Origin: an uncultured Deinococcales bacterium
GTDB lineage: Bacteria > Deinococcota > Deinococci > Deinococcales > JAAFIG01
Direction: 5' to 3'
NCBI GenBank assembly: GCA_964244895.1
Contig: CAXTKV010000167.1
Span: 1 to 11,841 of the forward strand
Length of the DNA: 11,841 bases
The notes under the pieces are model-generated. The model searched no databases, was not told where the DNA came from, and was given only the letters and a program-made list of their open reading frames with translations. Each line of letters begins with the position of its first letter. Positions within the stretch are counted from its first letter, which is position 1. The translations under genes were made by a program, and so were the position numbers. Shown piece after piece: positions 1-11,841 of the stretch.

Positions 1-450
1 CAGGCTGACCGTCGGCGGCGGGGTATCGGCGGTTGTGCAGTCTTTTTTGATCTTGACCATGATCTTTTCGGTGGTCAATACCTTGCCGCTTTTGAGGTAG
101 ATCTTGGCGGTGAAATGCCGCTCGTATTCGTTTGCGTTTTCGGTGTCTTCGCCGTCCGTCCCGCCGTTGGTGACGGATTGTGCAGCGATATCGAGGCTGT
201 ACGGGGTTGTGGTGCTGGTACCCAGCAAGGTCTTGCCCTGGTAGAACTCGACTTTGATCACTTCGCCGAGATCGGATTTCAGTTTGACAGCCAGCGTGAT
301 CGTGCCGGTGCAATCGGTCGTGACCGTGCTGCTCGAGAGTTCGCCGGTGGTCGGCGTGACGGTTCCCGTGGGTGTGGTGTTACAGCCGACCAGAAGCGTT
401 GCGCCGCCCCAACCCAGTGCCTGTACCGCCTGGCGTCGATTCATGTGCAT
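1..450 (-). CDS. Tat-type lipoprotein with bacterial Ig-like domain(s); partial, runs off the left edge
   Basis: Not in the ORF track; translated by hand. ATG at 450 follows GAGGGGG-N5 and the frame is open to base 1: MHMNRRQAVQALGWGGATLLVGC-NTTPTG...VIKVEFYQGKTLLGTSTTTPYSLDI...KKDCTTADTPPPTVSL. It has a twin-Arg N-region and lipobox LVGC. The VxKVEFYxGxxLLGTxTxxPYS and DTxPPTVSL motifs resemble Big_7-type Ig domains. Confidence 0.85.
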   Translation of the reverse strand, partial: MHMNRRQAVQALGWGGATLLVGCNTTPTGTVTPTTGELSSSTVTTDCTGTITLAVKLKSDLGEVIKVEFYQGKTLLGTSTTTPYSLDIAAQSVTNGGTDGEDTENANEYERHFTAKIYLKSGKVLTTEKIMVKIKKDCTTADTPPPTVSL

Positions 451-548
451 GTTGACCCCCTCGCGCGGCTGATGGCGCCACGCGCGACCTCGAGCGATGC
501 TCGTCCAGAATTCGGGTTGTGCGGTCGTTCCCCTCCCTGGAAACGGGT

Positions 549-1370
549 TTACTTGATGGTCCAGAAGCTTTCTTGGGTGGTGTGACAGTAGGTGCAGAAG
601 TGGTTGGGCAGGGTTTTCTGGAAGGCGACCAGATCTTCGGGGTTCTCGAGCAGGGTCTGTTGGGCGCGAACGTACTGAAGCGCCTGACCCAGATCTTGCG
701 GGCTGATTTCCTGAGCGCCCCGGTGGCAACTGGCGCAGCGCTCCGTGCCCGAAGCGATCAGCGTCGGGTGGTTCGGCACGAAATCCGCGCCGTGGCTGGC
801 GGGCACGTGGCATCTGGAACACGAACCGTCGCCGGATTTCCCGAAGCTGGTAAAAATCGTCGGGTTAACGGTCGGGGTGCCGCCCTCGAAGCTGGCGGGT
901 TTGGTCTGGGCGTTGTGGCACTGCGAACAGAACCGTCCGAGGGATTTCGCGGCGTGCGGCTCCAGGCTCACGTCCGGCGCGCGGGATTGAAAGTCCTTGC
1001 CGCTGCCCAGCCCGCGCTCGTCGGCGTGGCAGCTCAGGCAGTTCTTCGAACCCAGGGACGCGAAATGCCGTTCGTGGCTGAAGGTCACGCGGGTCGCACC
1101 TTTCGGCGCCCAGTGCTTCTCGATGTCCTGCGGCGGTCGCCACTGCGGTTGCGGGATGGCGGTTCCGTTTCGCAGTTCGACCCAGCGTCCCGCCTTGAGG
1201 CTCGAGATACCGAGTTCCGGCAGGGGCGCGCCGTTGGAGAGCGCGAAGGTTTTCGTGGCCGGGTCGTACCGCACCCAGGCCAGGGTTTTCCAGCCGTTCG
1301 CCAAGGCGATTCCCAGCCAGCCCACAATCAGCAGGGCGGCCAGGAACCGCGTGGCGGACGGTGTTTTCAC
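549..1370 (-). CDS. Secreted pentaheme c-type cytochrome (c3/c7-like N-terminal motif)
   Basis: Sec-like signal peptide (MKTPSATRFLAALLIVGWLGIALA). Five CxxCH motifs: CLSCH, CSQCH, CSRCH, CASCH, CTYCH. An FSHxxH motif precedes the first. The GTG start overlaps the yceI stop (GTGA). Confidence 0.9.
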   Translation of the reverse strand: MKTPSATRFLAALLIVGWLGIALANGWKTLAWVRYDPATKTFALSNGAPLPELGISSLKAGRWVELRNGTAIPQPQWRPPQDIEKHWAPKGATRVTFSHERHFASLGSKNCLSCHADERGLGSGKDFQSRAPDVSLEPHAAKSLGRFCSQCHNAQTKPASFEGGTPTVNPTIFTSFGKSGDGSCSRCHVPASHGADFVPNHPTLIASGTERCASCHRGAQEISPQDLGQALQYVRAQQTLLENPEDLVAFQKTLPNHFCTYCHTTQESFWTIK

Positions 1371-1912
1371 TGCGTAGCCGCCTCGGCTGAGATGCTCACG
1401 GTCACGTCGTTACCGACTTTCAGGCCCATCATGCTGGGTTGCTCCATCCGGTAATCGGTGATTTTCATGGCGAACTGCCCGGTGAACGTGACCTTGCCGC
1501 CGTCGGTTTTGGCCTGAGCCGCAATGTTGATCGGCGCGGTCACGCCGTGCATGGTCAGGTTGCCGGAAAGCACGAAGCCGCCCTTGGTCGGATCGCCCTG
1601 AATCTTGGTGGGTTCAAAGCAGGCGGTCGGGAATTTCTCGGCCTCGAACATGTCCTTGGTGTGGCTGTCGCGGATGATCTCGCCGGAAGCCCAGGCTTTC
1701 TGGTCGCTGCAAATCTTGCCCTTGACGGCGTTCGATTCCTTGTCCCAGGTGAACGCGCCGGTGACGGCCTTGTTGGTGCCCTTGAACTTGCCCAACGGCC
1801 CGGACGCTTCGTAGGTCAGTTGGGCGTTCGGCGTGTAACTGGCGGGTGCGGCGACGCTCGAGGCGAGCGTGGAAGCACCGGCGATAACGAGCGTGGCGAT
1901 CAGTGTTTTCAT
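1367..1912 (-). CDS. yceI: YceI-family polyisoprenoid/lipid-binding periplasmic protein
   Basis: Start reassigned to ATG 1912 after RBS GAAAGGA-N8. Signal peptide MKTLIATLVIAGASTLASSVAA. YceI-like motifs RDSH..MFEAEKFP..F and GNLTMHGVT. Confidence 0.85.
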   Translation of the reverse strand: MKTLIATLVIAGASTLASSVAAPASYTPNAQLTYEASGPLGKFKGTNKAVTGAFTWDKESNAVKGKICSDQKAWASGEIIRDSHTKDMFEAEKFPTACFEPTKIQGDPTKGGFVLSGNLTMHGVTAPINIAAQAKTDGGKVTFTGQFAMKITDYRMEQPSMMGLKVGNDVTVSISAEAATQ

Positions 1913-1959
1913 GGTGTTTTTCCTTTCAATAGACTTGGGCGGCGAGCCGACGACGGGGC

Positions 1960-2184
1960 TTAGGGGCGCCAGAAACCCGAAGCGTTGATGTCGAAATCGT
2001 TCGGGTTGACCTGGGCGTTGACCGCGCTGATCAACAAGAACACCGCAGCCGCCAACACCAGCGCGCCCCCGAGGGCAGCCAGCGCTTCGAGCGCGACCGT
2101 GGCCACCTCGAGACTTCTGGGGTTCTGCCTGGCTCGAGGATCGCGGGTCGGTGCGCGAAGGTCGGGGTTCCATAGGTGGGTCAT
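1960..2184 (-). CDS. Small single-pass membrane protein, 74 aa, unknown function
   Basis: Strong RBS GAAAGGAG-N6-ATG. One long hydrophobic segment (ALAALGGALVLAAAVFLLISAV). Co-oriented within the cluster. Confidence 0.7.
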   Translation of the reverse strand: MTHLWNPDLRAPTRDPRARQNPRSLEVATVALEALAALGGALVLAAAVFLLISAVNAQVNPNDFDINASGFWRP

Positions 2185-2280
2185 GATCGGCTCCTTTCGA
2201 GGGCTGAGGTGTCTGAGTCGCGGTGCGATCGTGTCTGAAAGCTTTTTGGAAAGATCGGCCAGGATAGTGTTTCTGGCATG

Positions 2281-2303
2281 CGAAAAATCGCGTCCTGGAC
2301 GGT
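2281..2303. repeat. Single copy of the dispersed palindromic (REP-like) unit
   Basis: Reverse complement ACCGTCCAGGACGCGATTTTTCG. Lies just after the beta-barrel stop and matches copies at 4730-4781, 8933-8986 and 10620-10644. Confidence 0.7.
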
Positions 2304-2310
2304 GCCGGAC

Positions 2311-3837
2311 TTACCTACAACCGCTCGGCGTAACAGCTGTCGGGGTTTCTTCCGGCCCGAGGATGCGCGCGTCCGGGGCGGGCGGATCGACGGGCACGTA
2401 AAACCAGCTCGAGAGCCCCAACTTGACGGTGGCCGCCGACGGGTTCGTGATCGGCGAGACGACCTCCAGAATCACTTGCCAGCCATCGAAGCTCGAGTAA
2501 CTGAGCCGCAGGTCGGCGTTGTAGCGGTTGTAGAAGCGCACGTCGGTCGTGGTCACGTCGAGCGCCACCGTGAACGGCCCGCCGAAGATATCGCGGTAGG
2601 TCACGCCCGCGCGCGCGCCGATGCGAAACTGCGTGTCCGAACCCGCGCTCAGCCCGAAACGCAATTCGACCGGGTCGCCCAGCCAGAGGCTGTCCACGTC
2701 GAGGTGTCCGGGCGTCGGCGAGAAGGTTCCGGTCGCGCCGAAACGCAGTTCCGTCAGGACATCCGGGATGGGTTTCAAGAAGCGGTATTCGCCGCGCACG
2801 AAGCTGCCGCCGAACGCGTCCGTGCGCCATTCCAGGCTCAGTTCGCGCGTGAAGAACAGCCCACCCGTGCTGAAACCCGTCGCGTCAATATCCGTCCGTC
2901 CGCGCAAGGATAACCAGCCCAGGGGCGTGTCAGTCACGAAGCCGATACCCTCGAGATAGACGCTCTTGTCCGTGCCGCCGAAGTTGAAACGGTAATCGGG
3001 CGCGTTCCTGATCTCGCCCGTGAAGCTCAGGACGTTCGCGCCGGACACGCCGAGCGCGGTTTCGGCCTGCGGTCTGTACTGGACGCTGCCGTGGAACTGA
3101 TCGTAACCGCCTTGCGCAGAAACGATCGGGTCTTGACCCAGGATGTTTAGGCTCGCGCCCGCGCAGACGTAAGGGCTGTTCCAGCCGATGCCGCCGCGCA
3201 TCGCGGCCTGGAACGGTCGCGCCCAACCGATCGCGAAACCGAACGGCAAATCCTGCGAGAGGTACAAGCCGCGCCCCGCATCGCCCGCCACGTGCAACGG
3301 TGCGCCGAAACTGTCGGCCAGCAGCGCCCGGAAGCCCTGGTAGCGCAGATCGACGCTTCCATCGAAGGACGCGTCCGGGCTCCAGGTCAGCGCACCGTTC
3401 AGGTGCAGGTCGCCCCAGCCACCCGACACGCGCAATCCCGCGTCACCACCCAGGCTGGGCGAGCCCGCCGGGTCGAACGCCCCGTTGCCGGAGAGGATCA
3501 CGTTGAAACCGGACTCGCCCGGTGAGCCGACCTCGAGCCGGTACGCGGTCTGCGCGCCGCTCGCGTCAATCACGGCCAGCGTCACCAGGCAGGTGCTGTA
3601 GCCCTTGGTAATGACCGTCAGCGCTGCGCGTCCCGGCCCCTCGAGTTGCGCGGCGTCGAGGCTCGCAGGGCAGGTGCTGGCGGCCACCGCGATTTGCAGC
3701 GTGCCAGTTTGAGCCAGCACCAGCCCGATCTCGACGCGATCGTTGAAGGCCACTGGAGCGTCCAGGCTGAGTTGAGCCATGACCGGGCAACACCCGATCA
3801 CGGCGAACAGAATGGCGCTGGCGAAGGATCGTCGCAT
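2311..3837 (-). CDS. Secreted protein, probable outer-membrane beta-barrel with a small N-terminal domain (508 aa)
   Basis: ATG 3837 lies 1 nt after the Rieske stop, suggesting translational coupling. Signal peptide MRRSFASAILFAVIGCCPVMA. Many Gly/aromatic amphipathic strands (LHLNGALTW, GSVDLRY, FVRGEYRF, FRIGARAGVTY, YNADLRLSY, VKLGLSSWFY). No family recognised. Confidence 0.7.
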   Translation of the reverse strand: MRRSFASAILFAVIGCCPVMAQLSLDAPVAFNDRVEIGLVLAQTGTLQIAVAASTCPASLDAAQLEGPGRAALTVITKGYSTCLVTLAVIDASGAQTAYRLEVGSPGESGFNVILSGNGAFDPAGSPSLGGDAGLRVSGGWGDLHLNGALTWSPDASFDGSVDLRYQGFRALLADSFGAPLHVAGDAGRGLYLSQDLPFGFAIGWARPFQAAMRGGIGWNSPYVCAGASLNILGQDPIVSAQGGYDQFHGSVQYRPQAETALGVSGANVLSFTGEIRNAPDYRFNFGGTDKSVYLEGIGFVTDTPLGWLSLRGRTDIDATGFSTGGLFFTRELSLEWRTDAFGGSFVRGEYRFLKPIPDVLTELRFGATGTFSPTPGHLDVDSLWLGDPVELRFGLSAGSDTQFRIGARAGVTYRDIFGGPFTVALDVTTTDVRFYNRYNADLRLSYSSFDGWQVILEVVSPITNPSAATVKLGLSSWFYVPVDPPAPDARILGPEETPTAVTPSGCR

Positions 3838-3838
3838 C

Positions 3839-4591
3839 TTATGGGCGCAAAATTCCCGTCGCGTAGACGGTGTTGTCGGAAGCAACCTGAAGGCTGTACT
3901 GCGCGAGCGGCTTGCTGGTCTTGTTGGCCGATCCCGTCGGCGTTCCGGTGGTGGCGGTGAACTGCTGACCGTGGTTCGGGCAGGTCATGATGCCGCTCGT
4001 GGGATTGCCGATGGACGTACCCTGGTGCGTGCAGACCCTCGAGAACGCCACGATCCAGACGCTGCCGCGCTGCACGCCGCCCGCGAGTTGGGTGCTGCTG
4101 GCGTAGACGATCACCGGGACGCCGCTGACGGTGACGCGTTTGAACTGCCCATCCGCCGTGACTTCGGTCGCCAGAAGCACCTGGGTTCCGGTCGGTGGTG
4201 GCGGAGGCGGCGGGGTCGGCCCAGGGGGCGGTGGCGGAGGGGTCGGGCCGGGTGGCGGCGGTGGTGGCGTCGGGCCCGGTGGGGGTGGTGGCGGTGTCGG
4301 CCCTGGCGGGGGTGGCGGTGGCGTTGGACCCGGCGGAGGTGGCGGTGGGGTCGGGCCGGGCGGTGGTGGCGGTGGGGTTGGGCCGGGCGGTGGTGAAGGC
4401 GGCGTCGGCGATGGAGGCGGTGGTGGCCCAGGCGGTGTCACGGGAGTGGCATCGAATTCGTTGCAGGCGCTCAGCACGACGGGAGCTGCCGTCAGGCACA
4501 ACAGGCAACCGATCATTCGCATCGCCTCGCGGCGGCTGAACTCCTTGTCGAGCGCACGATCCAGGATCGGTTCGGGGGTTGTCTCGGTCAT
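3839..4591 (-). CDS. Tat-exported lipoprotein with polyproline linker and C-terminal Rieske [2Fe-2S] domain
   Basis: Start reassigned to ATG 4591 after RBS AAAGGAG-N5. Twin-Arg motif FSRREAM and lipobox LSAC. Linker (GPTPPPPPP)x7. Rieske boxes CTHQG and CPNHG. Confidence 0.9.
   Translation of the reverse strand: MTETTPEPILDRALDKEFSRREAMRMIGCLLCLTAAPVVLSACNEFDATPVTPPGPPPPPSPTPPSPPPGPTPPPPPPGPTPPPPPPGPTPPPPPPGPTPPPPPPGPTPPPPPPGPTPPPPPPGPTPPPPPPPTGTQVLLATEVTADGQFKRVTVSGVPVIVYASSTQLAGGVQRGSVWIVAFSRVCTHQGTSIGNPTSGIMTCPNHGQQFTATTGTPTGSANKTSKPLAQYSLQVASDNTVYATGILRP
4193..4436 (-). repeat. 27-bp coding tandem repeat (GPTPPPPPP x7 plus degenerate units)
   Basis: Seven units are identical in amino acids but differ at synonymous positions. 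Confidence 0.95.
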
Positions 4592-4729
4592 CAGCACTCC
4601 TTTTGGGCTGCAAACCACCAAACCCGTGCGCCCCGGTGACACACGCGTCAAAACGGTGGATCCTTGCCCGAACAGGAGTCTCAGGATTTTGGTTAACTGA
4701 GGATTAGACCACTTTTGCAACGCATCCGA

Positions 4730-4781
4730 AGACCGTTCAGGACACGAATCTTGAGTCCTCAAAAATACCGTCCAGGACGGT
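4730..4781. repeat. Inverted doublet of the palindromic unit (~52 bp)
   Basis: AGACCGTTCAGGACACGAATCTTGAG-TC-CTCAAAAATACCGTCCAGGACGGT aligns end to end with 8933-8986. Confidence 0.8.
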
Positions 4782-4876
4782 GCTCGCGCGAACCGAAATC
4801 TTTTCCCGAGCCGTATTGATCGGGTTCCGTGCGATCCGGAACACCGCAGATGCCCAGCTCGAAGCCGCTGGGGTAG

Positions 4877-4882
4877 TACCGT
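4877..4882 (+). promoter_or_regulatory. Putative -10 box for leaderless transcription of the response regulator
   Basis: TACCGT (TANNNT) lies exactly 6 nt before ATG 4889, and no Shine-Dalgarno is visible. Confidence 0.6.
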
Positions 4883-4888
4883 GAAACC

Positions 4889-5563
4889 ATGCGATTGCTC
4901 GTAGTCGAAGACGACCCGGACTTGCTGCGCGCCCTGGCATCCGGCCTGCGCGAGGAAGGCTACGTCGTGGACGAATCCGACGACGGCGAGGACGCGGTCT
5001 ATCAGGCCAGCCTGACCTCGCACGATTTGATCGTGCTGGACGTGGGTTTACCGTCCCAGGACGGCTTTTCGGCCTGCCGGGAAATGCGCGCGCACGGTGT
5101 CAAGGCCGCGATCTTGATGCTGACCGCCAGGGACGACCTGCGCGATAAGGTCAGCGGTCTGGACGCGGGCGCGGACGATTACCTGACCAAACCCTTCGAG
5201 TTCGAGGAACTGCTGGCGCGATTGCGGGCGCTGCTGCGGCGCGGCGGCTCGAGCGCGCTCCTGGGCGTGGGCGACCTCAGCCTCGACCCGTCCAACGCCC
5301 GCGTCGAACGCGCCGGGAAGGTGATCGCTTTGAGCGCGCGCGAGTACGCGATGCTGGAATTCCTGATGCGCCACCCCGACGAGGTGCTGTCCCGCGCGCG
5401 GATCGCAGAAGCCGTCTGGCCCGACGATGCTGGCTTCGATTCCAACGTGGTGGACGTGTTCGTGTCGTATCTCAGAAAGAAGATTGACAAGCCTTTCACC
5501 GTAGCGTTGTTGCACACGGTGCGCGGCATGGGTTACGTGCTGCGCTCGCCGCAGGGTGGCTGA
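4889..5563 (+). CDS. OmpR/PhoB-family response regulator
   Basis: Receiver domain (LVVEDD, DLIVLDVGLP, LMLTA, GADDYLTKPF) plus winged helix (LSAREY.MLE.LM, SNVVDVFVSYLRKKID, HTVRGMGY). Confidence 0.97.
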   Translation: MRLLVVEDDPDLLRALASGLREEGYVVDESDDGEDAVYQASLTSHDLIVLDVGLPSQDGFSACREMRAHGVKAAILMLTARDDLRDKVSGLDAGADDYLTKPFEFEELLARLRALLRRGGSSALLGVGDLSLDPSNARVERAGKVIALSAREYAMLEFLMRHPDEVLSRARIAEAVWPDDAGFDSNVVDVFVSYLRKKIDKPFTVALLHTVRGMGYVLRSPQGG

Positions 5564-6990
5564 TGTCACTGCGGTTGCGGCTAACCCTGACGCTCGCCCT
5601 GGCGCTCTTATTGCCCGTCCTGAGCCTGGGTGCGGTGCTGTACGCCCTGACGGCGGCGGATGCGGGCGCGGACTTCGATCTGGAATTGCGAACCCTGGCC
5701 AGGGCTTACGCGCAACTCGCGGTCGGTGCGGATCGGGTGATGCTGCGCGAGCCACCCTCGACGCCGCTGCTGGAAAAACTGGGCGATCTTCAGGTGTTTT
5801 TGGTCAGGCCGAACGGAAGCGTGCAGGATGCTTTGAACTCGAACCAGATCAGCATCCCGGCGGATGTTCTGGCTCGAGTTCAGGGCGGTCAAGAAGCTTC
5901 TTTTGCCCTGGGCGGGGATCGGGGTGCAGCGGTCTTCCCGATCTTCTCGACGGACGGCACCTTCAGTCTGGCCTACGCTCTGGTGGTATCCGCCGCCGAT
6001 CTGGCGGGCACGCAGAGGCTGATGAAGTTGCGCTTGACGGTGATCGTCTGGCTGGTGGGAGCGGCGCTGTTGGCCTTCATCGTCGGTGATCGGCTGGCGG
6101 TCTGGTTGAGCCGCCCTCTGCGCGAGGTCGCCCAGACGGCCCGCGCGGTCGAACACGGCGAACTCTCGAGCCGCATCCCTCGGGCGGATTCGCGAGACGA
6201 GCTGGGCGCGCTCAAGCGCAGCCTGAACGGCATGCTGGAGCGCCTCGAATCGCTGGTCGAGGCGCAACGCCGCTTTACCGCCGAGGCCGCGCACGATTTG
6301 CGCACGCCCCTGTCGGTGCTGCGCACCGAGGTCGAGGTCGCGCTGCGCCGACCGCGCGAGGCGCCCGAGTACCGCGCCGTGCTGGAACGCCTTCTGGAAC
6401 GCATCGGCGGGCTCTCAAAGCTGGCCGAAGACCTGCTGACGCTGGCGCGACTCGAGGCTGGGCCGGAGGTTCCGTTCGAGCGTTTCGTGCTTTCAGACGC
6501 GCTCGAGACGGTGCGTTCGACCTACGCGCATCTGGCGACGCAGCGAGGGCTGGCGTATTCTTTTGAGATTCCACGCGATCTGGAATTCTACGGCGATGCC
6601 GTGATGATCGGTCGCGCCGTCGGCAACTTGCTCGAAAACGCGGTCGGTGCCGCCAGCAGCGAAGTCGGTTTGCGCGTTCGGGCCAAGGGGCGCGAGGTCA
6701 CGCTGCGCGTCTGGGACGACGGCTCCGGCGTTGACCCGCAGATGCGCGAGCGCTTGTTTACTCGTTTCGCCAAGGGCGCTCGCTCCCGTGGCGCGGGGCT
6801 GGGGCTGGCGATCGTGCAGGGGGTCGTGCGCGCCCACGAGGGCAGCATCGCGCTCGAAGAGGCCGCCAAGGGAGCCATGTTTGTGGTGACCTTGCCCAAT
6901 GCCTTCGATGCGGGTTCGTCCAACACGCGCGAAACGGGCATGAGGGCCTCGAGGACAGATTCCAATTCTCGTGTAACAAATGTGAAGTAA
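5563..6990 (+). CDS. Membrane sensor histidine kinase (2 TM, HAMP, HisKA, HATPase_c)
   Basis: TGATG overlap with the regulator. H-box AAHDLRTPL, N-box NLLENA, G1 DDGSG, G2 GAGLGLAI. Confidence 0.96.
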   Translation: MSLRLRLTLTLALALLLPVLSLGAVLYALTAADAGADFDLELRTLARAYAQLAVGADRVMLREPPSTPLLEKLGDLQVFLVRPNGSVQDALNSNQISIPADVLARVQGGQEASFALGGDRGAAVFPIFSTDGTFSLAYALVVSAADLAGTQRLMKLRLTVIVWLVGAALLAFIVGDRLAVWLSRPLREVAQTARAVEHGELSSRIPRADSRDELGALKRSLNGMLERLESLVEAQRRFTAEAAHDLRTPLSVLRTEVEVALRRPREAPEYRAVLERLLERIGGLSKLAEDLLTLARLEAGPEVPFERFVLSDALETVRSTYAHLATQRGLAYSFEIPRDLEFYGDAVMIGRAVGNLLENAVGAASSEVGLRVRAKGREVTLRVWDDGSGVDPQMRERLFTRFAKGARSRGAGLGLAIVQGVVRAHEGSIALEEAAKGAMFVVTLPNAFDAGSSNTRETGMRASRTDSNSRVTNVK

Positions 6991-7029
6991 TTTATGGCGA
7001 AGAAAATGGAAAAGAAAGGAGCAATTCAA

Positions 7030-7938
7030 ATGAGGCTGTTTCGAGGACGCAACAAATTGACCCGAGGGTTGATCACCCTCGTGGCGTTAGCGTATCCCTT
7101 CGAGATGACCGTGGCGCTCGGACATCCGGGACGCGGCTCGGCGCGGCCAGGAGACATCTTGCGGAATGGCAATTTTCGTCACCCGCGCAAAGAACTCTCT
7201 TCGCGGATCGGATCGAGCCTGATGCCCTGGCTCGAGTACACCGAAAATGACGATCCAAAAAAAGACCCGAAGAAACCTGAAGATCCCAAGAGAGACCCGA
7301 AGAAACCAGAAGATCCAAAAAAAGATCCGAAGAAGCCCGAAGATCCAAAAAAACCTGAAGACCCCAGGAAACCCGAAGACCCCAGGAGAGACCCGAGCAA
7401 ACCCGAAGATCAAGATCAAAATCCGAGTAAACCAGAAGATCCCAAGAAACCAACCGATCAACCCAAATCGACCCCGCAAGCTCCGCAGACGCCCAATACA
7501 CCGCGCGCGCTCGACGTGCCGCGTGAGCTTTCTCAGATACGGCGCGATCTCAAGATTGGGCAACTCTGGGTCGTGCAAATCGCCGACCGACCCAGCGCCA
7601 TTCGGGTCAGTATCGAGGTCGGTGATCGGGTCATCGGCACGATCACCCTGAACCCCGAGACGGGACAACCCGTCATCTTTCAGGAGCGCTCGAACTACCG
7701 ACCCTCGAGCGCACTCGAGAACACGCAGCTCAGCACCATGCTCCAAACCGTGCGCGCCCAAGCTTCAGAGATCAAGTTTGGAACCTTCGTACTGCCCTCA
7801 CCGCGCGGCCTCGAGGTTCAGGTGTATTTCTCGAATAAACTCGTCGGTTACGTTTATATCGACCCCAAAAGTGGTGGCGTCGTCACCGACGAAAACGCCA
7901 CACGCGAAATTGATTCGAGTTCGATCCGGCTGAAGTAA
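7030..7938 (+). CDS. Secreted protein with Lys/Pro/Asp/Glu repeat and two PepSY-like C-terminal modules
   Basis: RBS AAAGGAG-N8-ATG 7030. Basic N-region plus hydrophobic stretch. About eight P(K/R/S)KP(E/T)D units. Duplicated module ending IGTITLNPETGQPV / VGYVYIDPKSGGVV. Confidence 0.75.
   Translation: MRLFRGRNKLTRGLITLVALAYPFEMTVALGHPGRGSARPGDILRNGNFRHPRKELSSRIGSSLMPWLEYTENDDPKKDPKKPEDPKRDPKKPEDPKKDPKKPEDPKKPEDPRKPEDPRRDPSKPEDQDQNPSKPEDPKKPTDQPKSTPQAPQTPNTPRALDVPRELSQIRRDLKIGQLWVVQIADRPSAIRVSIEVGDRVIGTITLNPETGQPVIFQERSNYRPSSALENTQLSTMLQTVRAQASEIKFGTFVLPSPRGLEVQVYFSNKLVGYVYIDPKSGGVVTDENATREIDSSSIRLK
7252..7458 (+). repeat. Coding repeat of 18/30-bp units (PKKPED, DPKKDPKKPE)
   Basis: Visible in both DNA and translation. 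Confidence 0.9.
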
Positions 7939-7959
7939 GTCAGGGCTCTCGAGAGATCC

Positions 7960-8004
7960 TCACGGTGCTGCAAGCGCGCGAGCCTCTCCTTCGCAGCGCC
8001 GTGA
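7960..8004. terminator. Stem-loop between convergent genes (possible terminator)
   Basis: TCACGGTGCTGC (7960-7971) pairs with GCAGCGCCGTGA (7993-8004) with one G-U. No clear U-tract. Confidence 0.4.
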
Positions 8005-8027
8005 CCTTGAGGAATACCTTCGGGTCT

Positions 8028-8813
8028 TCAAAATTTGTAGGTGACGCGCAAAAACGCGTAGACCTGACCGTCAAAACCGATCTCGAAGCGCAAGCCGATC
8101 TGGTCGGTCAGGTCGTAGAAGGCGTTGGCGTACAGGTCGTACCCGAACGCACCCGATGACCAACTGAGGTACCCGCCCACCCCGAGATCGAGGTTGTCCA
8201 GCGCGACGTAATCCAGTTCCAGGTACGGATAAAAAACGGGTTTGAGCTGCGGGAACAAGCGCAAGTCAACCTCCAGACCTCCGTACAGGGTCGTCATCTC
8301 GTCCGCAGCGTAAGCAAAATCTGCGCCCGCCATCAGCAACCCTTCGACGCCGAGCGTCTGCGTCGGCGTTCCCCCTGGGCGGCGGTCGTCATTGGAGTCG
8401 TTGGAATCGTTCGAGTCGTTGGAATTATCGTTGGGGTCATCGTCTTCGGGCGTCGTGACGGTCGGTGGGTTCGGCGAGTAGCTACCGAACAGGCTCAAGC
8501 CGCCGTAACCGATCACGCCCAACTGACCGTCGCCATAAATGTTGAAACGGTAAAGCGCGTTCGGGTTGAGCCGCACCACGAAACTCCCGCCGAGCGGTGC
8601 GTTCTCGAGCGTCAACTTGCCACCGATGGTCAGGCCATCCAACGCGTCGTAGTCGACCTCGAATTGCGCTCGCGCGTTGGCGCTCAACGGCGTGACCGCA
8701 CCGAGTTGAAACGACACCGAGAACTGCTGCGCGAAGCCTGCAGAACCGAGCAATGCAGACCCGAGCAGCAGGCTACAGAGCACGATCATCTGACGCTGGG
8801 CGCGGTGGGTCAC
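8028..8813 (-). CDS. Outer-membrane beta-barrel protein with an acidic Asn/Asp/Ser loop
   Basis: GTG 8813 after AGAGGA (alternative ATG 8789). Signal peptide ending AGFA-QQ. Amphipathic strands and a C-terminal beta-signal-like FLRVTYKF. Confidence 0.85.
   Translation of the reverse strand: MTHRAQRQMIVLCSLLLGSALLGSAGFAQQFSVSFQLGAVTPLSANARAQFEVDYDALDGLTIGGKLTLENAPLGGSFVVRLNPNALYRFNIYGDGQLGVIGYGGLSLFGSYSPNPPTVTTPEDDDPNDNSNDSNDSNDSNDDRRPGGTPTQTLGVEGLLMAGADFAYAADEMTTLYGGLEVDLRLFPQLKPVFYPYLELDYVALDNLDLGVGGYLSWSSGAFGYDLYANAFYDLTDQIGLRFEIGFDGQVYAFLRVTYKF
8385..8447 (-). repeat. 9-bp coding repeat (SND x4) in an acidic loop
   Basis: Translation EDDDPNDNSNDSNDSNDSNDD. Confidence 0.85.
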
Positions 8814-8892: not shown

Positions 8893-8906
8893 ACCGTGCA
8901 GCACGC
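8893..8906. repeat. Variant palindromic unit with a compensatory change
   Basis: ACCGTGCAGCACGC: CGTGC-A-GCACG instead of CGTCC-A-GGACG. Confidence 0.5.
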
Positions 8907-8932
8907 AGATTTACCGCCGAGCAACGCAAAAA

Positions 8933-8986
8933 AGACCGTCTGGGACGCGAATCTCGAGTCTCGAGAAACGGCGTGCTGGACGGTCT
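8933..8986. repeat. Inverted doublet of the palindromic unit; likely also the slyD terminator
   Basis: AGACCGTCTGGGACGCGAATCTCGAG-T-CTCGAGAAACGGCGTGCTGGACGGTCT. Perfect 8-bp inverted ends. It lies 13 nt past the slyD stop and is followed by a T run on the minus strand. Confidence 0.8.
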
Positions 8987-8999
8987 CCCCTGAATGATC

Positions 9000-9476
9000 T
9001 CAGTGGGTGTGGCCGTGATCGCCTTGGTGGGCGTGCCCGTGATCGAGTTCCTCCGGGGTGGCGTCGCGCACCTCTCGCACGGTCACGTCGAACTCGAGGG
9101 TTTCACCGGCCAGCGGGTGGTTGAAGTCCACCAGCACGCCGTCCGGTTTGACTTCCAGGACGGTGAACTGGATCGGTTCGCCCTCCTGGGTTTCGCCGGT
9201 GTAGCTCGCGCCGATCTCGAGGCTGTCGTCGAAAGCATCTCGCGGCAGCACCTGTTCGGCTTCCGGGTCGTACTCGCCGTAACCCTGGCCGGGTTCGACG
9301 CTGACGTGCTTGGCCTGTCCGGGCTCGAGGCCCGAGAGGGCGCTTTCCAGACCCGGAATGATGTTGCCGTGCCCGTGAAGGTACACGAGCGGGCTGCCGT
9401 TCGAGGCGTCGATGACTTCGCCTTCGACCTTGAGGCTATAGTCGATGGAGACGACCTTGTCGTTCTGTATTTTCAC
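9000..9476 (-). CDS. slyD: FKBP-type peptidyl-prolyl isomerase SlyD
   Basis: GTG 9476 after GAAAGGA-N5. Motifs YLHGHGNIIPGLE, GYGEYD, VDFNHPLAGETL.FDV.V.EVRDATPEEL.HGH. Short His-rich tail. Confidence 0.95.
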   Translation of the reverse strand: MKIQNDKVVSIDYSLKVEGEVIDASNGSPLVYLHGHGNIIPGLESALSGLEPGQAKHVSVEPGQGYGEYDPEAEQVLPRDAFDDSLEIGASYTGETQEGEPIQFTVLEVKPDGVLVDFNHPLAGETLEFDVTVREVRDATPEELDHGHAHQGDHGHTH

Positions 9477-9611
9477 GGGCATCCTTTCGTGCGCCACCTT
9501 GAGCCTGCGGCTCGCCTGGCCCATCTCGAGCCGTTTTCAGCCGCCGGGCGGCACGCTCGAGGGCTGAAGTTTACCGCACAGCCGAGGACGGCGCTCTCAA
9601 GTGGCAAGAAC

Positions 9612-9626
9612 ACCGTCTGGGACGGT
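9612..9626. repeat. Palindromic unit core downstream of the DUF72 gene
   Basis: ACCGTC-TGG-GACGGT. Confidence 0.7.
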
Positions 9627-9644
9627 CAAAAACGCGCGCGTCGC

Positions 9645-10457
9645 TCAGGCGTTTTGATCGTCCCACAGCGCCCGGAATTCGCGCGCGTTGGTCAGGCCCT
9701 GACCGCGCGTGGTGTTCTGAAAAAAAACGTAGGCCGATCTCGGGTGCGCGCGCTGAATGGCCGCGACCCACGGCTCGAGTTCGCCACTCGTGTACTGGTA
9801 ATCGTGGCGTTCGGCGGCGTCCTTGCCATCGAACCAGTTCCCAGCGTTGCGCCCGTGCATGCGCGCGTAGATCAGGCCAGATTGCGCGTTCGAAGCCCGC
9901 ACCGTAGAAGCGGGCAAACCCTCGAGCCTGGGCAAATCCACGCTGACGGCGTGCACGCCCAGATCCGCCAGGTACTGATAGACGGGTTCCTTGTCCCAGG
10001 ATTGGTGCCGGAATTCCACGGCCAGCTGCACGCCGTCACGCCGCCCGACGTTGAACCACTCCACCAGTTCCGCCAAGTGCGTTCTGGACGGTTGCGAGTT
10101 CTTGAAACTGTACGGGAACTGCGCCAGCAACGGCCCCAACTTGCCCGCCTGACGCACCGGGTCGATGGTGTACAAAAATCTTTTTGCGGCGTCCTCGTCC
10201 GCCATTTCCGGCTTGCCCAGATCGTGGGTGAACGAACGGTGCAACTTGACGCAGAACATCAAGCGCCCGAGGGATCGTTCCAGCATGGACGCGAAGGTTT
10301 TTTGCGCCGGAACCGCGTAGAAGGTCGAGTTGACCTCGACGGCGTTGAAATGCCGCGAGTAAAACTCGAGCCACTCGGTTTTTTTGAGTTCCGGCGGGTA
10401 GAACAACCCGACCCAGTCCTCGTTGCTGAAGCCGCCCGTGCCCAGGAACAGTTCCAC
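9645..10457 (-). CDS. DUF72 (YecE-like) protein
   Basis: Motifs GTGGFS..DW.G.FYP, VEVNSTFY, LAQFPYSF, AVEFRH.SW, YARMHGRN, DYQY...EL. Confidence 0.93.
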   Translation of the reverse strand: MELFLGTGGFSNEDWVGLFYPPELKKTEWLEFYSRHFNAVEVNSTFYAVPAQKTFASMLERSLGRLMFCVKLHRSFTHDLGKPEMADEDAAKRFLYTIDPVRQAGKLGPLLAQFPYSFKNSQPSRTHLAELVEWFNVGRRDGVQLAVEFRHQSWDKEPVYQYLADLGVHAVSVDLPRLEGLPASTVRASNAQSGLIYARMHGRNAGNWFDGKDAAERHDYQYTSGELEPWVAAIQRAHPRSAYVFFQNTTRGQGLTNAREFRALWDDQNA

Positions 10458-10463
10458 GCCCCA

Positions 10464-10469
10464 ATTTTA
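10464..10469 (-). promoter_or_regulatory. Putative -10 box for leaderless DUF72 transcript
   Basis: TAAAAT lies exactly 6 nt before the GTG start; no SD. Confidence 0.7.
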
Positions 10470-10619
10470 GGCGCTCGAGGTGAAAACCACCTCCGCCGTG
10501 CGGCTTAAGCCAGTCCTCGAAGGTCAGAACACCGCAGTGGACGGCATGAACTGAAGATTCTCGAGCGACGCAGGCTTCTCGAGGTACACCGAAACCGTGC
10601 TCGAGGCACAATTTCGCTG

Positions 10620-10644
10620 CTCGAGAAAACGCGTCTGGGACGAT
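10620..10644. repeat. Single copy of the palindromic unit
   Basis: Reverse complement ATCGTCCCAGACGCGTTTTCTCGAG. Confidence 0.7.
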
Positions 10645-10653
10645 ATTCTTGCC

Positions 10654-10659
10654 TACAAT
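10654..10659 (+). promoter_or_regulatory. Candidate -10 box for the pspC-yvlD operon
   Basis: TACAAT about 100 nt upstream of the pspC start; no clear -35. Confidence 0.4.
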
Positions 10660-10758
10660 GGTGCGATTGACGTAACCTGAATCGATTCCTCAGCGCGGGA
10701 ACCCGAGGGCAACGACCCGCGTACTACACGCAAACGCATGATCCCCAGACGGAGACAC

Positions 10759-11187
10759 ATGGAGCGCGGCACACGAATCTACCGAACCAGACGCGACCGA
10801 ACGCTCGGCGGCGTGGCGGGCGGGCTGGGCGTCAGCCTCGGGATTCACCCCGTGCTGGTGCGGCTCGGGCTGGTCGTGGTGGCTTTCTTGAGCCTGTTCT
10901 CGCCGCAACTGGCGGGATTGCTGGTGATCGCTTACATCGGCGCGTGGGTCGTCCTGCCGGAGATGCCCGCCGATCAGGAACCGTTCTTCAAGGCTTTCGT
11001 CCCGCCCGGTCTGACCCGACCGCGCCGGGGACGCGTGCTGGTCGGCGTCTGCGCGGGAATAGCGCGTTACACGAAGCTCCACGTGACGCTGGTGCGGATC
11101 GCGTTCGTGGCGCTCGGCTTCGCGATCGTGGGTTTGCTGGCCTACGCGGTCGGTTGGGTGCTGATGCCGGACGCGGATGGCTCTTGA
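10759..11187 (+). CDS. pspC: Membrane protein with two tandem PspC domains
   Basis: GGAG-N4-ATG 10759 (alternative 10738). The PspC motif occurs twice: YRTRRDRTLGGVAGGLG..LGIHPVLVRL and LTRPRRGRVLVGVCAGIARY..LHVTLVRI...AYAVGWVLMP. Confidence 0.88.
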   Translation: MERGTRIYRTRRDRTLGGVAGGLGVSLGIHPVLVRLGLVVVAFLSLFSPQLAGLLVIAYIGAWVVLPEMPADQEPFFKAFVPPGLTRPRRGRVLVGVCAGIARYTKLHVTLVRIAFVALGFAIVGLLAYAVGWVLMPDADGS

Positions 11188-11228
11188 GGCTCGAGCCACA
11201 ACCAAAAGGCTGTGAAAGGATGGAAGGC

Positions 11229-11588
11229 ATGAATTTTTTCTGGCGTGTACTGATCGGTGCGGGAGCGCTCTGGGTGGTTTCGGCGCTGTTCCCAGGATTG
11301 ATTTCCTTCGTCAACCCGACCGTCGGGGATTACCTGCTGACCGGGCTGGTGCTGGGGGTAGCAAACGCGATCCTCAGGCCGATTTTGCTGCTCTTGACGC
11401 TGCCGTTGAACTTCATCACGCTGGGGTTGTTCACTTTCGTGGTCAACGCCATCGTGCTGCTGGTCGTCTCGAATCTGACGCCGCTTCGGACGCACGGTTT
11501 CCTGGCCGCCATGATCGCGTCGATGCTGATCTCTTTCGCATCGTCCCTGATCGGTGGCCTGCTGCGCGAGCCTCAACGCTCGAACTGA
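11229..11588 (+). CDS. YvlD/DUF360 four-TM membrane protein ('phage holin family 4_2')
   Basis: AAAGGA-N8-ATG. Signature LG.ANAILRPILLLLTLPLNFITLGLFTFVVNA. It follows pspC as in Bacillus yvlC-yvlD. Confidence 0.9.
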   Translation: MNFFWRVLIGAGALWVVSALFPGLISFVNPTVGDYLLTGLVLGVANAILRPILLLLTLPLNFITLGLFTFVVNAIVLLVVSNLTPLRTHGFLAAMIASMLISFASSLIGGLLREPQRSN

Positions 11589-11650: not shown

Positions 11651-11683
11651 GGAACACCGTTCCTGTGCGGTGAGATCAAATCC

Positions 11684-11719
11684 GTTTTGATTTGATCAAA
11701 ATACAGATCAAATCAAAAC
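11684..11719. other. Perfect 14-bp AT-rich inverted repeat
   Basis: GTTTTGATTTGATC-N8-GATCAAATCAAAAC, with a third GATCAAATC at 11674-11682. Confidence 0.85.
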
Positions 11720-11732
11720 CGCGCTGTGGCGC

Positions 11733-11798
11733 GTAGGATGCGAATGAAATCGTCTGGAACTGAAGCGGCGAAGCCGCGCAAGTGAAAGACGATTTCAT
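11733..11798 (+). other. GTAG-led nested hairpin
   Basis: GTAG at 11733. ATGAAATCGTCT (11744-11755) pairs perfectly with AGACGATTTCAT (11787-11798) and encloses GCGGC-GAA-GCCGC. Confidence 0.65.
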
Positions 11799-11841
11799 AT
11801 GAGTTGGTGATTCACCCTCCCTCGAGAACGCCATCCCGGAA

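Follow-up and report, generated by a model that had tools for sequence, protein, structure and literature searches.

A candidate porin-cytochrome electron conduit with tethered Rieske lipoproteins in an uncultured Deinococcales bacterium

The stretch of DNA considered here, which we call the window, is the entire 11,841 nt contig C167 (CAXTKV010000167.1) of an uncultured Deinococcales bacterium whose genome (5.1 Mb in 328 contigs) is 91% complete; throughout, G denotes genomes (G000 being the source genome), C contigs of G000 and L fetched loci. The left-hand genes of the window encode an exported redox module with a predicted barrel, a YceI lipocalin, a pentaheme c-type cytochrome and lipid-anchored Rieske proteins, and we lean, with a confidence only a little better than even, towards the view that they form a porin-cytochrome conduit for electrons that is built in a new way. 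The initial annotation had proposed an undescribed trans-envelope redox system, and the undescribed exported module stands, given its syntenic core, the model of its barrel and the absence of a bc, Aio or Nrf operon; the "trans-envelope" part we infer, as contacts in the model are confined to the periplasmic half of the pore. We read the genes, their cofactor motifs, the tethers and the co-occurrence from sequence; the barrel fold and the complex are predictions.

In the conduit that we propose, the barrel would hold the pentaheme cytochrome from the periplasmic side, YceI would bring quinol from the inner membrane to the cytochrome, and lipid-anchored Rieske proteins on tethers of 10-25 nm would pass the electrons onward. 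Electrons would most likely flow outward from menaquinol, because the hemes, probably bis-His ligated, together with Rieske centers that lack the disulfide or the usual Ser, suggest fairly low potentials.

Gene order and distribution of the module

Six co-oriented minus-strand genes, among ten genes in all, were listed by the initial annotation, and every open reading frame (ORF) was found where it had been placed, including two tight pairs in which the Rieske and barrel genes are separated by 1 nt (position 3838) and yceI and the cytochrome gene overlap by GTGA. The six encode a Tat lipoprotein with a [2Fe-2S] Rieske domain that is devoid of the disulfide cysteines (3839..4591; PF00355, 2e-8), a 508-aa protein with an Ig-like domain, a predicted 26-strand barrel and a short C-terminal tail (2311..3837), a 74-aa protein with a single hydrophobic stretch and a strong ribosome-binding site (1960..2184), a YceI-family lipocalin (1367..1912; PF04264, 1.3e-21), a secreted c-type cytochrome with five hemes, an N-terminal OB-like domain and no named family (549..1370; Cytochrome_C7, 8e-11), and the N-terminal 150 aa of a second Tat lipoprotein with Big_7 Ig repeats (1..450; Big_7, 2e-8), whose gene is truncated by the contig end. 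Export signals were assessed by pattern. A Pfam scan of 14 window proteins (floor of E<=0.5) confirmed the families of the Rieske protein, YceI, the cytochrome and the regulator-kinase pair discussed further below, and assigned no family to the 508-aa, 74-aa, 314-aa and 261-aa proteins. The 74-aa protein, which also has no family in NCBIfam (scanned at E<=0.01) and no match in the other barrel loci, is not part of the core.

The distribution of the module was surveyed in 364 Deinococcota genomes with profiles of the cytochrome and the barrel, which matched 33 and 10 genomes, respectively, the latter comprising six full-length and four partial barrels. All six full-length barrels lie directly before a YceI-cytochrome pair and have at least one Rieske lipoprotein beside them. 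As the barrel-YceI-cytochrome order recurs in the window and in five other genomes from two families, the arrangement is not due to chance, and the synteny that the initial annotation had called for is there. One of these genomes, from the Thermaceae (G197), reproduces the order of the window: Rieske, barrel, YceI, cytochrome and a Rieske protein on an Ig stalk. Of the fetched loci, 55 offer 700 nt or more of upstream sequence (not de-duplicated; 11 others were dropped for a short flank); five of these carry both the barrel and a Rieske gene and 50 carry neither, and YceI lies directly upstream of the cytochrome in 54. The YceI-cytochrome pair alone is also found in one Lentisphaerae and one Leptospirales record.

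The constancy of this pair, which reaches beyond the Deinococcota, speaks for an explanation other than a conduit, namely antioxidant and redox maintenance of the envelope. The barrel would then only dock the cytochrome at the outer membrane, where it would re-reduce YceI-bound quinone that quenches lipid peroxyl radicals, with Rieske proteins feeding electrons from the periplasm and none of these leaving the cell. Such a module would act like BcnA-LcoA, with the pentaheme cytochrome in place of cytochrome b561; BcnA, a YceI protein, and LcoA guard against membrane lipid peroxidation, and quinone re-reduction has been proposed for them (PMC9113575). Both BcnA-LcoA and YceI-YceJ resemble our module in that a YceI lipocalin is tightly linked to a heme protein in the envelope (PMC9113575), and the divergent gene in the Lentisphaerae locus resembles, by eye, a glutathione peroxidase. 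In our module, however, the partner of YceI is a soluble pentaheme cytochrome c, a barrel and Rieske proteins are added, and no cytochrome b561 is encoded in the locus (Pfam, same 14 proteins) or in the neighbor loci that were read. Moreover, the LcoA-quinone step is itself merely a proposal in PMC9113575, and a 26-strand pore would be a costly way to anchor a protein whose neighbors make do with lipid anchors. On balance we regard the antioxidant explanation as rather unlikely.

The modelled barrel and its predicted partner

That the 508-aa protein is a barrel, as first annotated, is borne out by its AlphaFold2 model (20 alignment rows, pLDDT 84.2), in which an Ig-like domain is followed by 26 strands and a tail that ends 26 residues after the barrel, with no plug domain. 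Its best fold matches are tied, namely PapC (Z 17.0, rmsd 5.8, 322 residues aligned), FimD (16.9, 5.7, 313) and MtrB (6r2q_B; 16.7, 8.7, 349). When the barrel profile was searched against 1.84 billion proteins, 14 matches were obtained, none of them from the MtrB family, and neither the Pfam nor the NCBIfam scan matched that family; seven of the 14 are long forms of 834-1105 aa. In their barrel region, short and long forms align as homologues (hhalign 99.8%, E 5e-30), and by this alignment the barrel is homologous to usher-like proteins. In four genomes, such long forms (914-1070 aa) occur in four-gene operons whose other members are a protein with two Ig domains and a pair of small secreted proteins, at L095:1338-6507 (G040), L096:4876-10560 (G291), L097:5540-10458 (G128) and L098:5936-11119 (G076), all in Deinococcales. 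By their layout these look like an unannotated chaperone-usher-type pilus system; it is this layout that makes them putative ushers, the long forms having weak CarboxypepD_reg/WxLIP matches below the Pfam cut-off and no sequence match in the PDB. A lead towards inverse autotransporter barrels was dropped, as the Atlas matches behind it were weak (0.84).

The barrel may instead be a secretion pore of the usher kind, through which the Ig-stalk Rieske lipoproteins would reach the cell surface; the cytochrome and YceI would then work apart from it in the periplasm, and the complex model would be either false or a stalled intermediate. PapC and FimD as top matches, the chaperone-usher-like operons of the long homologues, the co-occurrence of barrel and Rieske genes in six of six loci and the resemblance of the Ig domains to usher cargo would all fit such a role. 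The barrel shares its very large size with these ushers; however, it has 26 modelled strands instead of 24 and no plug, the C-terminal domains seen in the long forms are missing from it, and none of the six loci contains a chaperone-like or pilin gene. The lumen-facing residues F300, W308, W478 and Y/F480 are aromatic in five or six of the six short barrels and mostly not in the long forms, as far as a loose alignment allows this comparison, and the complex described next passes against its controls. We consider an export function improbable.

As the initial annotation had suggested, the barrel was modelled together with the cytochrome, with four hemes supplied. The complex scored 0.85 (0.84, 0.86 and 0.85 in individual runs), compared with 0.00 for the best of three controls; the runs share at least 89% of contacts, and the partner pLDDT is at least 85. 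The mark for this score is reached by 116 of 157 solved and by 2 of 215 mismatched pairs, counts that hold only roughly here. The model places the cytochrome inside the barrel's periplasmic half. Its predicted contacts, which share a single face, involve the Ig domain, the tail, the short turns and, in many strands, residues of lumen parity. The short turns of outer-membrane barrels are periplasmic, and by this topology rule the contact face is the periplasmic one. This resembles MtrB, a barrel of 26 strands that receives MtrA from the periplasm (PMC7198977), and the confinement of the contacts to that half would suit the antioxidant explanation as well. At the contact positions 191-192 of the cytochrome, all six barrel-linked sequences have A/P-S, whereas 12 of the 13 barrel-less sequences have K/R-D, and a test for loss of charge at the interface over all positions, the window included, gave p 0.0008.

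The cytochrome carries five CxxCH motifs, which are invariant together with H99, H102, H139, H193 and H201 (in sets of 19 and 39 aligned rows); since five further His residues are thus invariant in 39 rows, all five hemes are probably bis-His ligated. Its own model has a pLDDT of 70.7, and fold searches returned a best Z of 4.2, for the N-terminal OB-like part, and no Foldseek match at E<=0.001, which is no proof of a new fold.

The module is like MtrAB in its modelled architecture and differs from it in sequence and in the number of hemes. With MtrAB(C) of Shewanella (PDB 6R2Q) and with PioAB and MtoAB it shares adjacent genes, lipoprotein redox partners nearby, a plugless barrel of 26 modelled strands and a bis-His multiheme cytochrome with a predicted entry from the periplasmic side. 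In contrast to those systems, its barrel has no sequence match to the MtrB/PioB models and measures about 375 aa, has short loops and carries an Ig domain plus a tail, and its cytochrome has five hemes, not ten (DmsE-type model TIGR03508, 15.6 bits against a cut-off of 192.2). Rieske lipoproteins stand in the place of the decaheme MtrC, YceI is included in the operon, and the host belongs to the Deinococcota. PCC3, PCC4 and OmbB-OmaB-OmcB likewise group the gene of a porin that is not of the Mtr type with genes for multiheme cytochromes (PMC5566968); judged by their descriptions, our module is set apart from them by its one small cytochrome, its Rieske and YceI partners and the lack of a 5-helix HX13H inner-membrane protein in the locus.

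Tethered Rieske proteins and the proposed path of electrons

YceI would deliver the electrons to the cytochrome. It matches the solved chains 7bwl (2e-8), 1wub (9e-7) and 5ixg (4e-6), its relatives bind isoprenoids and ubiquinone (PMC9113575), and by sequence it is likely a carrier of quinone or polyisoprenoid.

The Rieske protein of the window has a twin-Arg and lipobox pattern and a linker of 82 residues (residues 52-133, positions 4193..4438), 63 of which are prolines; at 0.31 nm per residue this tether would measure ~25 nm if it formed a polyproline II helix. The truncated gene at the left end would provide a second Rieske lipoprotein. An end of contig C180 overlaps window positions 1-128 (the first 54 nt are identical and 6 mismatches follow), and its ORF (L001:9389-10720) encodes three Big_7 domains followed by a C-terminal Rieske domain, so that the cut gene most likely continues there as an Ig-stalk Rieske gene. 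This join is supported by full-length Ig-stalk Rieske genes directly after the cytochrome gene in G006, G009, G015 and G197. Alternatively, the C180 gene could be a second tandem copy, two being present in G009 and G015. Junction reads gave no support across the C180 side, and a contig from run X1 covers window positions 1-2206 and 2278-3507 and extends past base 1. At the right end of the window, an exact 55 nt is carried by contig C116 (contig-end comparison), and the overlaps at both ends look like the assembly-graph type.

The lengths of the tethers differ within and between genomes, from ~20 residues in a double Rieske protein of G197 up to stalks of 3-6 Ig motifs. Such variability is easier to reconcile with surface display or a graded relay than with a periplasmic ruler of fixed length. 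In D. radiodurans, the gap between outer membrane and S-layer is ~20 nm and the periplasm is ~90 nm (PMC8688812). As Rieske proteins are present exactly when the barrel is, we take them to fill the place of MtrC beyond the pore; that they serve as periplasmic shuttles is nearly as likely. Only one protein with at least three CxxCH motifs, the cytochrome itself, was found among 11,105 composition-filtered ORFs of the genome, which argues against a full mineral-respiring lifestyle, so that an inducible reduction of metals or oxidants at the cell surface is the more likely job of the proposed conduit.

The nearest solved chains to the Rieske domain are AioB (5e-5) and 5cxm (4.5e-4). They share Tat export with our protein, 5CXM being a stand-alone Rieske protein that we take to reside in the envelope. 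The module differs from both in having no AioA, in its long proline or Ig tethers with a lipid anchor, and in its link to a barrel. The AioB match raises the question of whether we are merely looking at a fragment that strayed from an ordinary respiratory operon, be it Rieske/cytochrome b, arsenite oxidase or Nrf, to which the weak scores of the AioB model (TIGR02694, 30.8 bits against a cut-off of 95.65) and the NrfB model (TIGR03146, 17.2 against 166.6) could also point. Both fall far below their cut-offs, and no second protein with at least three CxxCH motifs accompanies the cytochrome among the filtered ORFs, as NrfAB would imply. AioA does not exceed its cut-off in G000, G006, G009 or G015 (the best TIGR02693 score in G000 is 68.2 bits against 359); it does so in G197 alone, where it lies 0.8 Mb away from the module. 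The two cytochrome b matches of G000 both map to C64 and have a Rieske gene of their own. Left of base 1, where the initial annotation advised looking for cytochrome b or oxidoreductase genes, C180 offers the Ig-stalk Rieske gene and then tatA-like, polyferredoxin and 2-oxoacid oxidoreductase genes (the tatA and oxidoreductase genes named by eye or similarity, the tatA-like ORF having no Pfam match). No bc, Aio or Nrf operon thus flanks the module, and a stray operon seems to us scarcely credible. The C64 genes (G000:C64:15465-23486) form a respiratory cluster with a cbb3-like oxidase, a Rieske protein, two cytochrome b genes and, by eye, an MvhD-like protein. Bacteroidota clusters of Rieske, YceI and DUF5777 genes were dropped as a comparison, there being no DUF5777 match and no literature found.

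Several points weigh against the conduit. The modelled contacts involve none of the 13 longer loops of the barrel and reach at their deepest 8 residues up strand 1; they stop short of the outer loops, so that a heme chain to the surface is not established by the model, and five hemes are half of MtrA's complement. The score of the complex may draw on memory of the solved MtrAB structure, its controls include no other multiheme protein, and only four of the five hemes were supplied. Loss of charge at the interface becomes modest when the window is left out (9/15 against 13/42, p 0.048) and weaker still against outgroup rows (8/17 against 10/33, p 0.19), and in the reverse direction more change is also seen at the interface (6/15 against 8/40). 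With respect to distribution, 27 of the 33 genomes with the cytochrome have no full-length barrel match, implying that the basic job of the cytochrome needs no pore. The six barrel-linked cytochromes lie on one side of a branch with support 93/87 (not starred), with the two from Thermaceae placed apart from the other Thermaceae ones, so that the six barrel loci are one clade and not six independent events; the tree is compatible with what may have been a single origin. Finally, the ~90 nm periplasm of D. radiodurans (PMC8688812) exceeds every tether, with the proviso that the envelope of our host may differ.

As to how a conduit might have arisen, we tentatively entertain an independent invention in the Deinococcota, a possibility to which we give somewhat less than even credence. 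An usher-type pore would have lost its secretion domains and trapped the pentaheme cytochrome of a YceI-cytochrome module, and Rieske proteins on tethers of graded length (a short double Rieske, 4-6 Ig domains, a 25-nm polyproline) would act as a ladder of heme-free relays that takes electrons across a thick envelope or beyond the S-layer.

Regulators, neighboring genes and implications

Divergent from the module lie an OmpR-family response regulator (4889..5563, plus strand) and a histidine kinase with HAMP, HisKA and HATPase domains (5563..6990, plus strand), both recognized by Pfam. The initial annotation was right about this pair, but its description as dedicated is not supported, since an orthologue of the regulator (75%) adjoins the module in only one (G006) of the five other barrel loci. 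The kinase is followed by g9 (6994..7938, plus strand; 314 aa), a K/D/E/P-repeat protein with a conserved C-terminal domain, and by g10 (8028..8813, minus strand; 261 aa), likely a small outer-membrane barrel. The "PepSY-like" label once given to g9 finds no confirmation in Pfam at E<=0.5. For g10, the assignment as a second barrel holds by language-model features only (Atlas 0.94-0.95 to DUF6733/KdgM-like clusters), and its strand is convergent to the two-component genes. Homologues of g9 occur in six of 41 genomes, four of which have no cytochrome match, and g10 co-occurs with g9 and has a paralogue on C33. The order regulator, kinase, g9, g10 recurs beside a DUF5666 gene in G002 and G004 (91 and 94% complete), with no cytochrome match there. 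By these comparisons the four right-hand genes are a separate cassette, with g9 and g10 as accessories, and are neighbors rather than core. A promoter scan of the window gave 0 sites, terminators were not above shuffled sequences, and no operator repeat shared between the window and G006 was found. The best NCBIfam models of the regulator (cztR_silR_copR, 227.5 bits, cut-off 279.2) and of the kinase (cztS_silS_copS, 207.9 bits, cut-off 292.55) stay under their cut-offs; together with two barrel-less loci that lie amid multicopper oxidase and heavy-metal ATPase genes, they hint at metals.

In Thermaceae, the barrel-less operon mostly consists of genes for a DUF5666 lipoprotein, YceI, the cytochrome, a four-helix protein, a regulator and a kinase (L017-L021, L035-L044), along with a K/E-rich exported protein, and it is present in cultured Thermus species. 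A G000 gene on C13 resembles its regulator more closely (45-51%) than the regulator of the window does (36-43%). The four-helix protein has invariant E27, H33 and H83, a possible heme or metal site. At E<=0.001 it was not found in G000, G006, G015 or G197, one of five genomes being positive; a full-sensitivity local search of G000 gave weak matches on C216 (2.6e-4) and C13 (3e-3), which are a lead only. G000:C13:31400-34688 and L110:1-1456 each hold a four-helix protein, a stand-alone Tat Rieske protein and a second regulator-kinase pair, and in G006 this set shares an island with the module. Further small Rieske proteins with no cytochrome b nearby are encoded in G000 at C4:54741, C13:32064, C18:27465 and C33:30255; three have a twin-Arg-like start, and the one on C33 is preceded by a monoheme cytochrome.

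Downstream of the Ig-stalk Rieske gene, the tatA-like and polyferredoxin genes are found at L001:7879-9346, L015:14945-16192 and L016:6220-7395, and in G006 and G009 they are an extra copy beside the common one; polyferredoxin was rejected as a marker of the module because it is near-universal (39 of 41 genomes). A 703-aa lipoprotein-like protein with one CxxCH directly follows tatA in the G015 module (L014:2512-4623), and a Dps/ferritin-like protein with a signal-like, proline-rich N-terminus is encoded downstream of the G006 module (L016:5255-5962). Elsewhere in the window, dispersed intergenic repeat families with many copies genome-wide occupy 4720-4785, 8914-9004 and 11667-11809, one copy (8893-8986) being palindromic and REP-like, and positions 8994-11588 hold unrelated neighbors, namely a SlyD-type FKBP, a DUF72 protein, a double PspC protein and a Phage_holin_4_2 membrane protein.

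Literature searches, which covered few subscription papers and no supplements, returned no description of this gene combination and no porin-cytochrome conduit in Deinococcota, and the string "Deinococc" occurs 0 times in the accessible text of PMC13741234, PMC10654088, PMC11475568, PMC5566968 and PMC6497744. If our proposal is true, the Deinococcota would possess a porin-cytochrome conduit with parts unrelated by sequence to Mtr, Pio and Cyc2, which homology screens would miss; MHCscan, for instance, has a default of 15 hemes per cluster (PMC11475568), and the module has five. As the relatives of the barrel look like pilus ushers, it would also be a concrete case for conduits arising by stalled secretion through a large pore (PMC7198977). 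Furthermore, the module suggests what stand-alone exported Rieske proteins might do and could serve to test whether YceI supplies a redox partner with quinone. Iron reduction by T. scotoductus involves cytochromes that differ from the Shewanella and Geobacter ones (PMC3235269), by which no link to the barrel-less operon is implied. With that barrel-less form present in cultured Thermus species, the core of the module is open to study at the bench.

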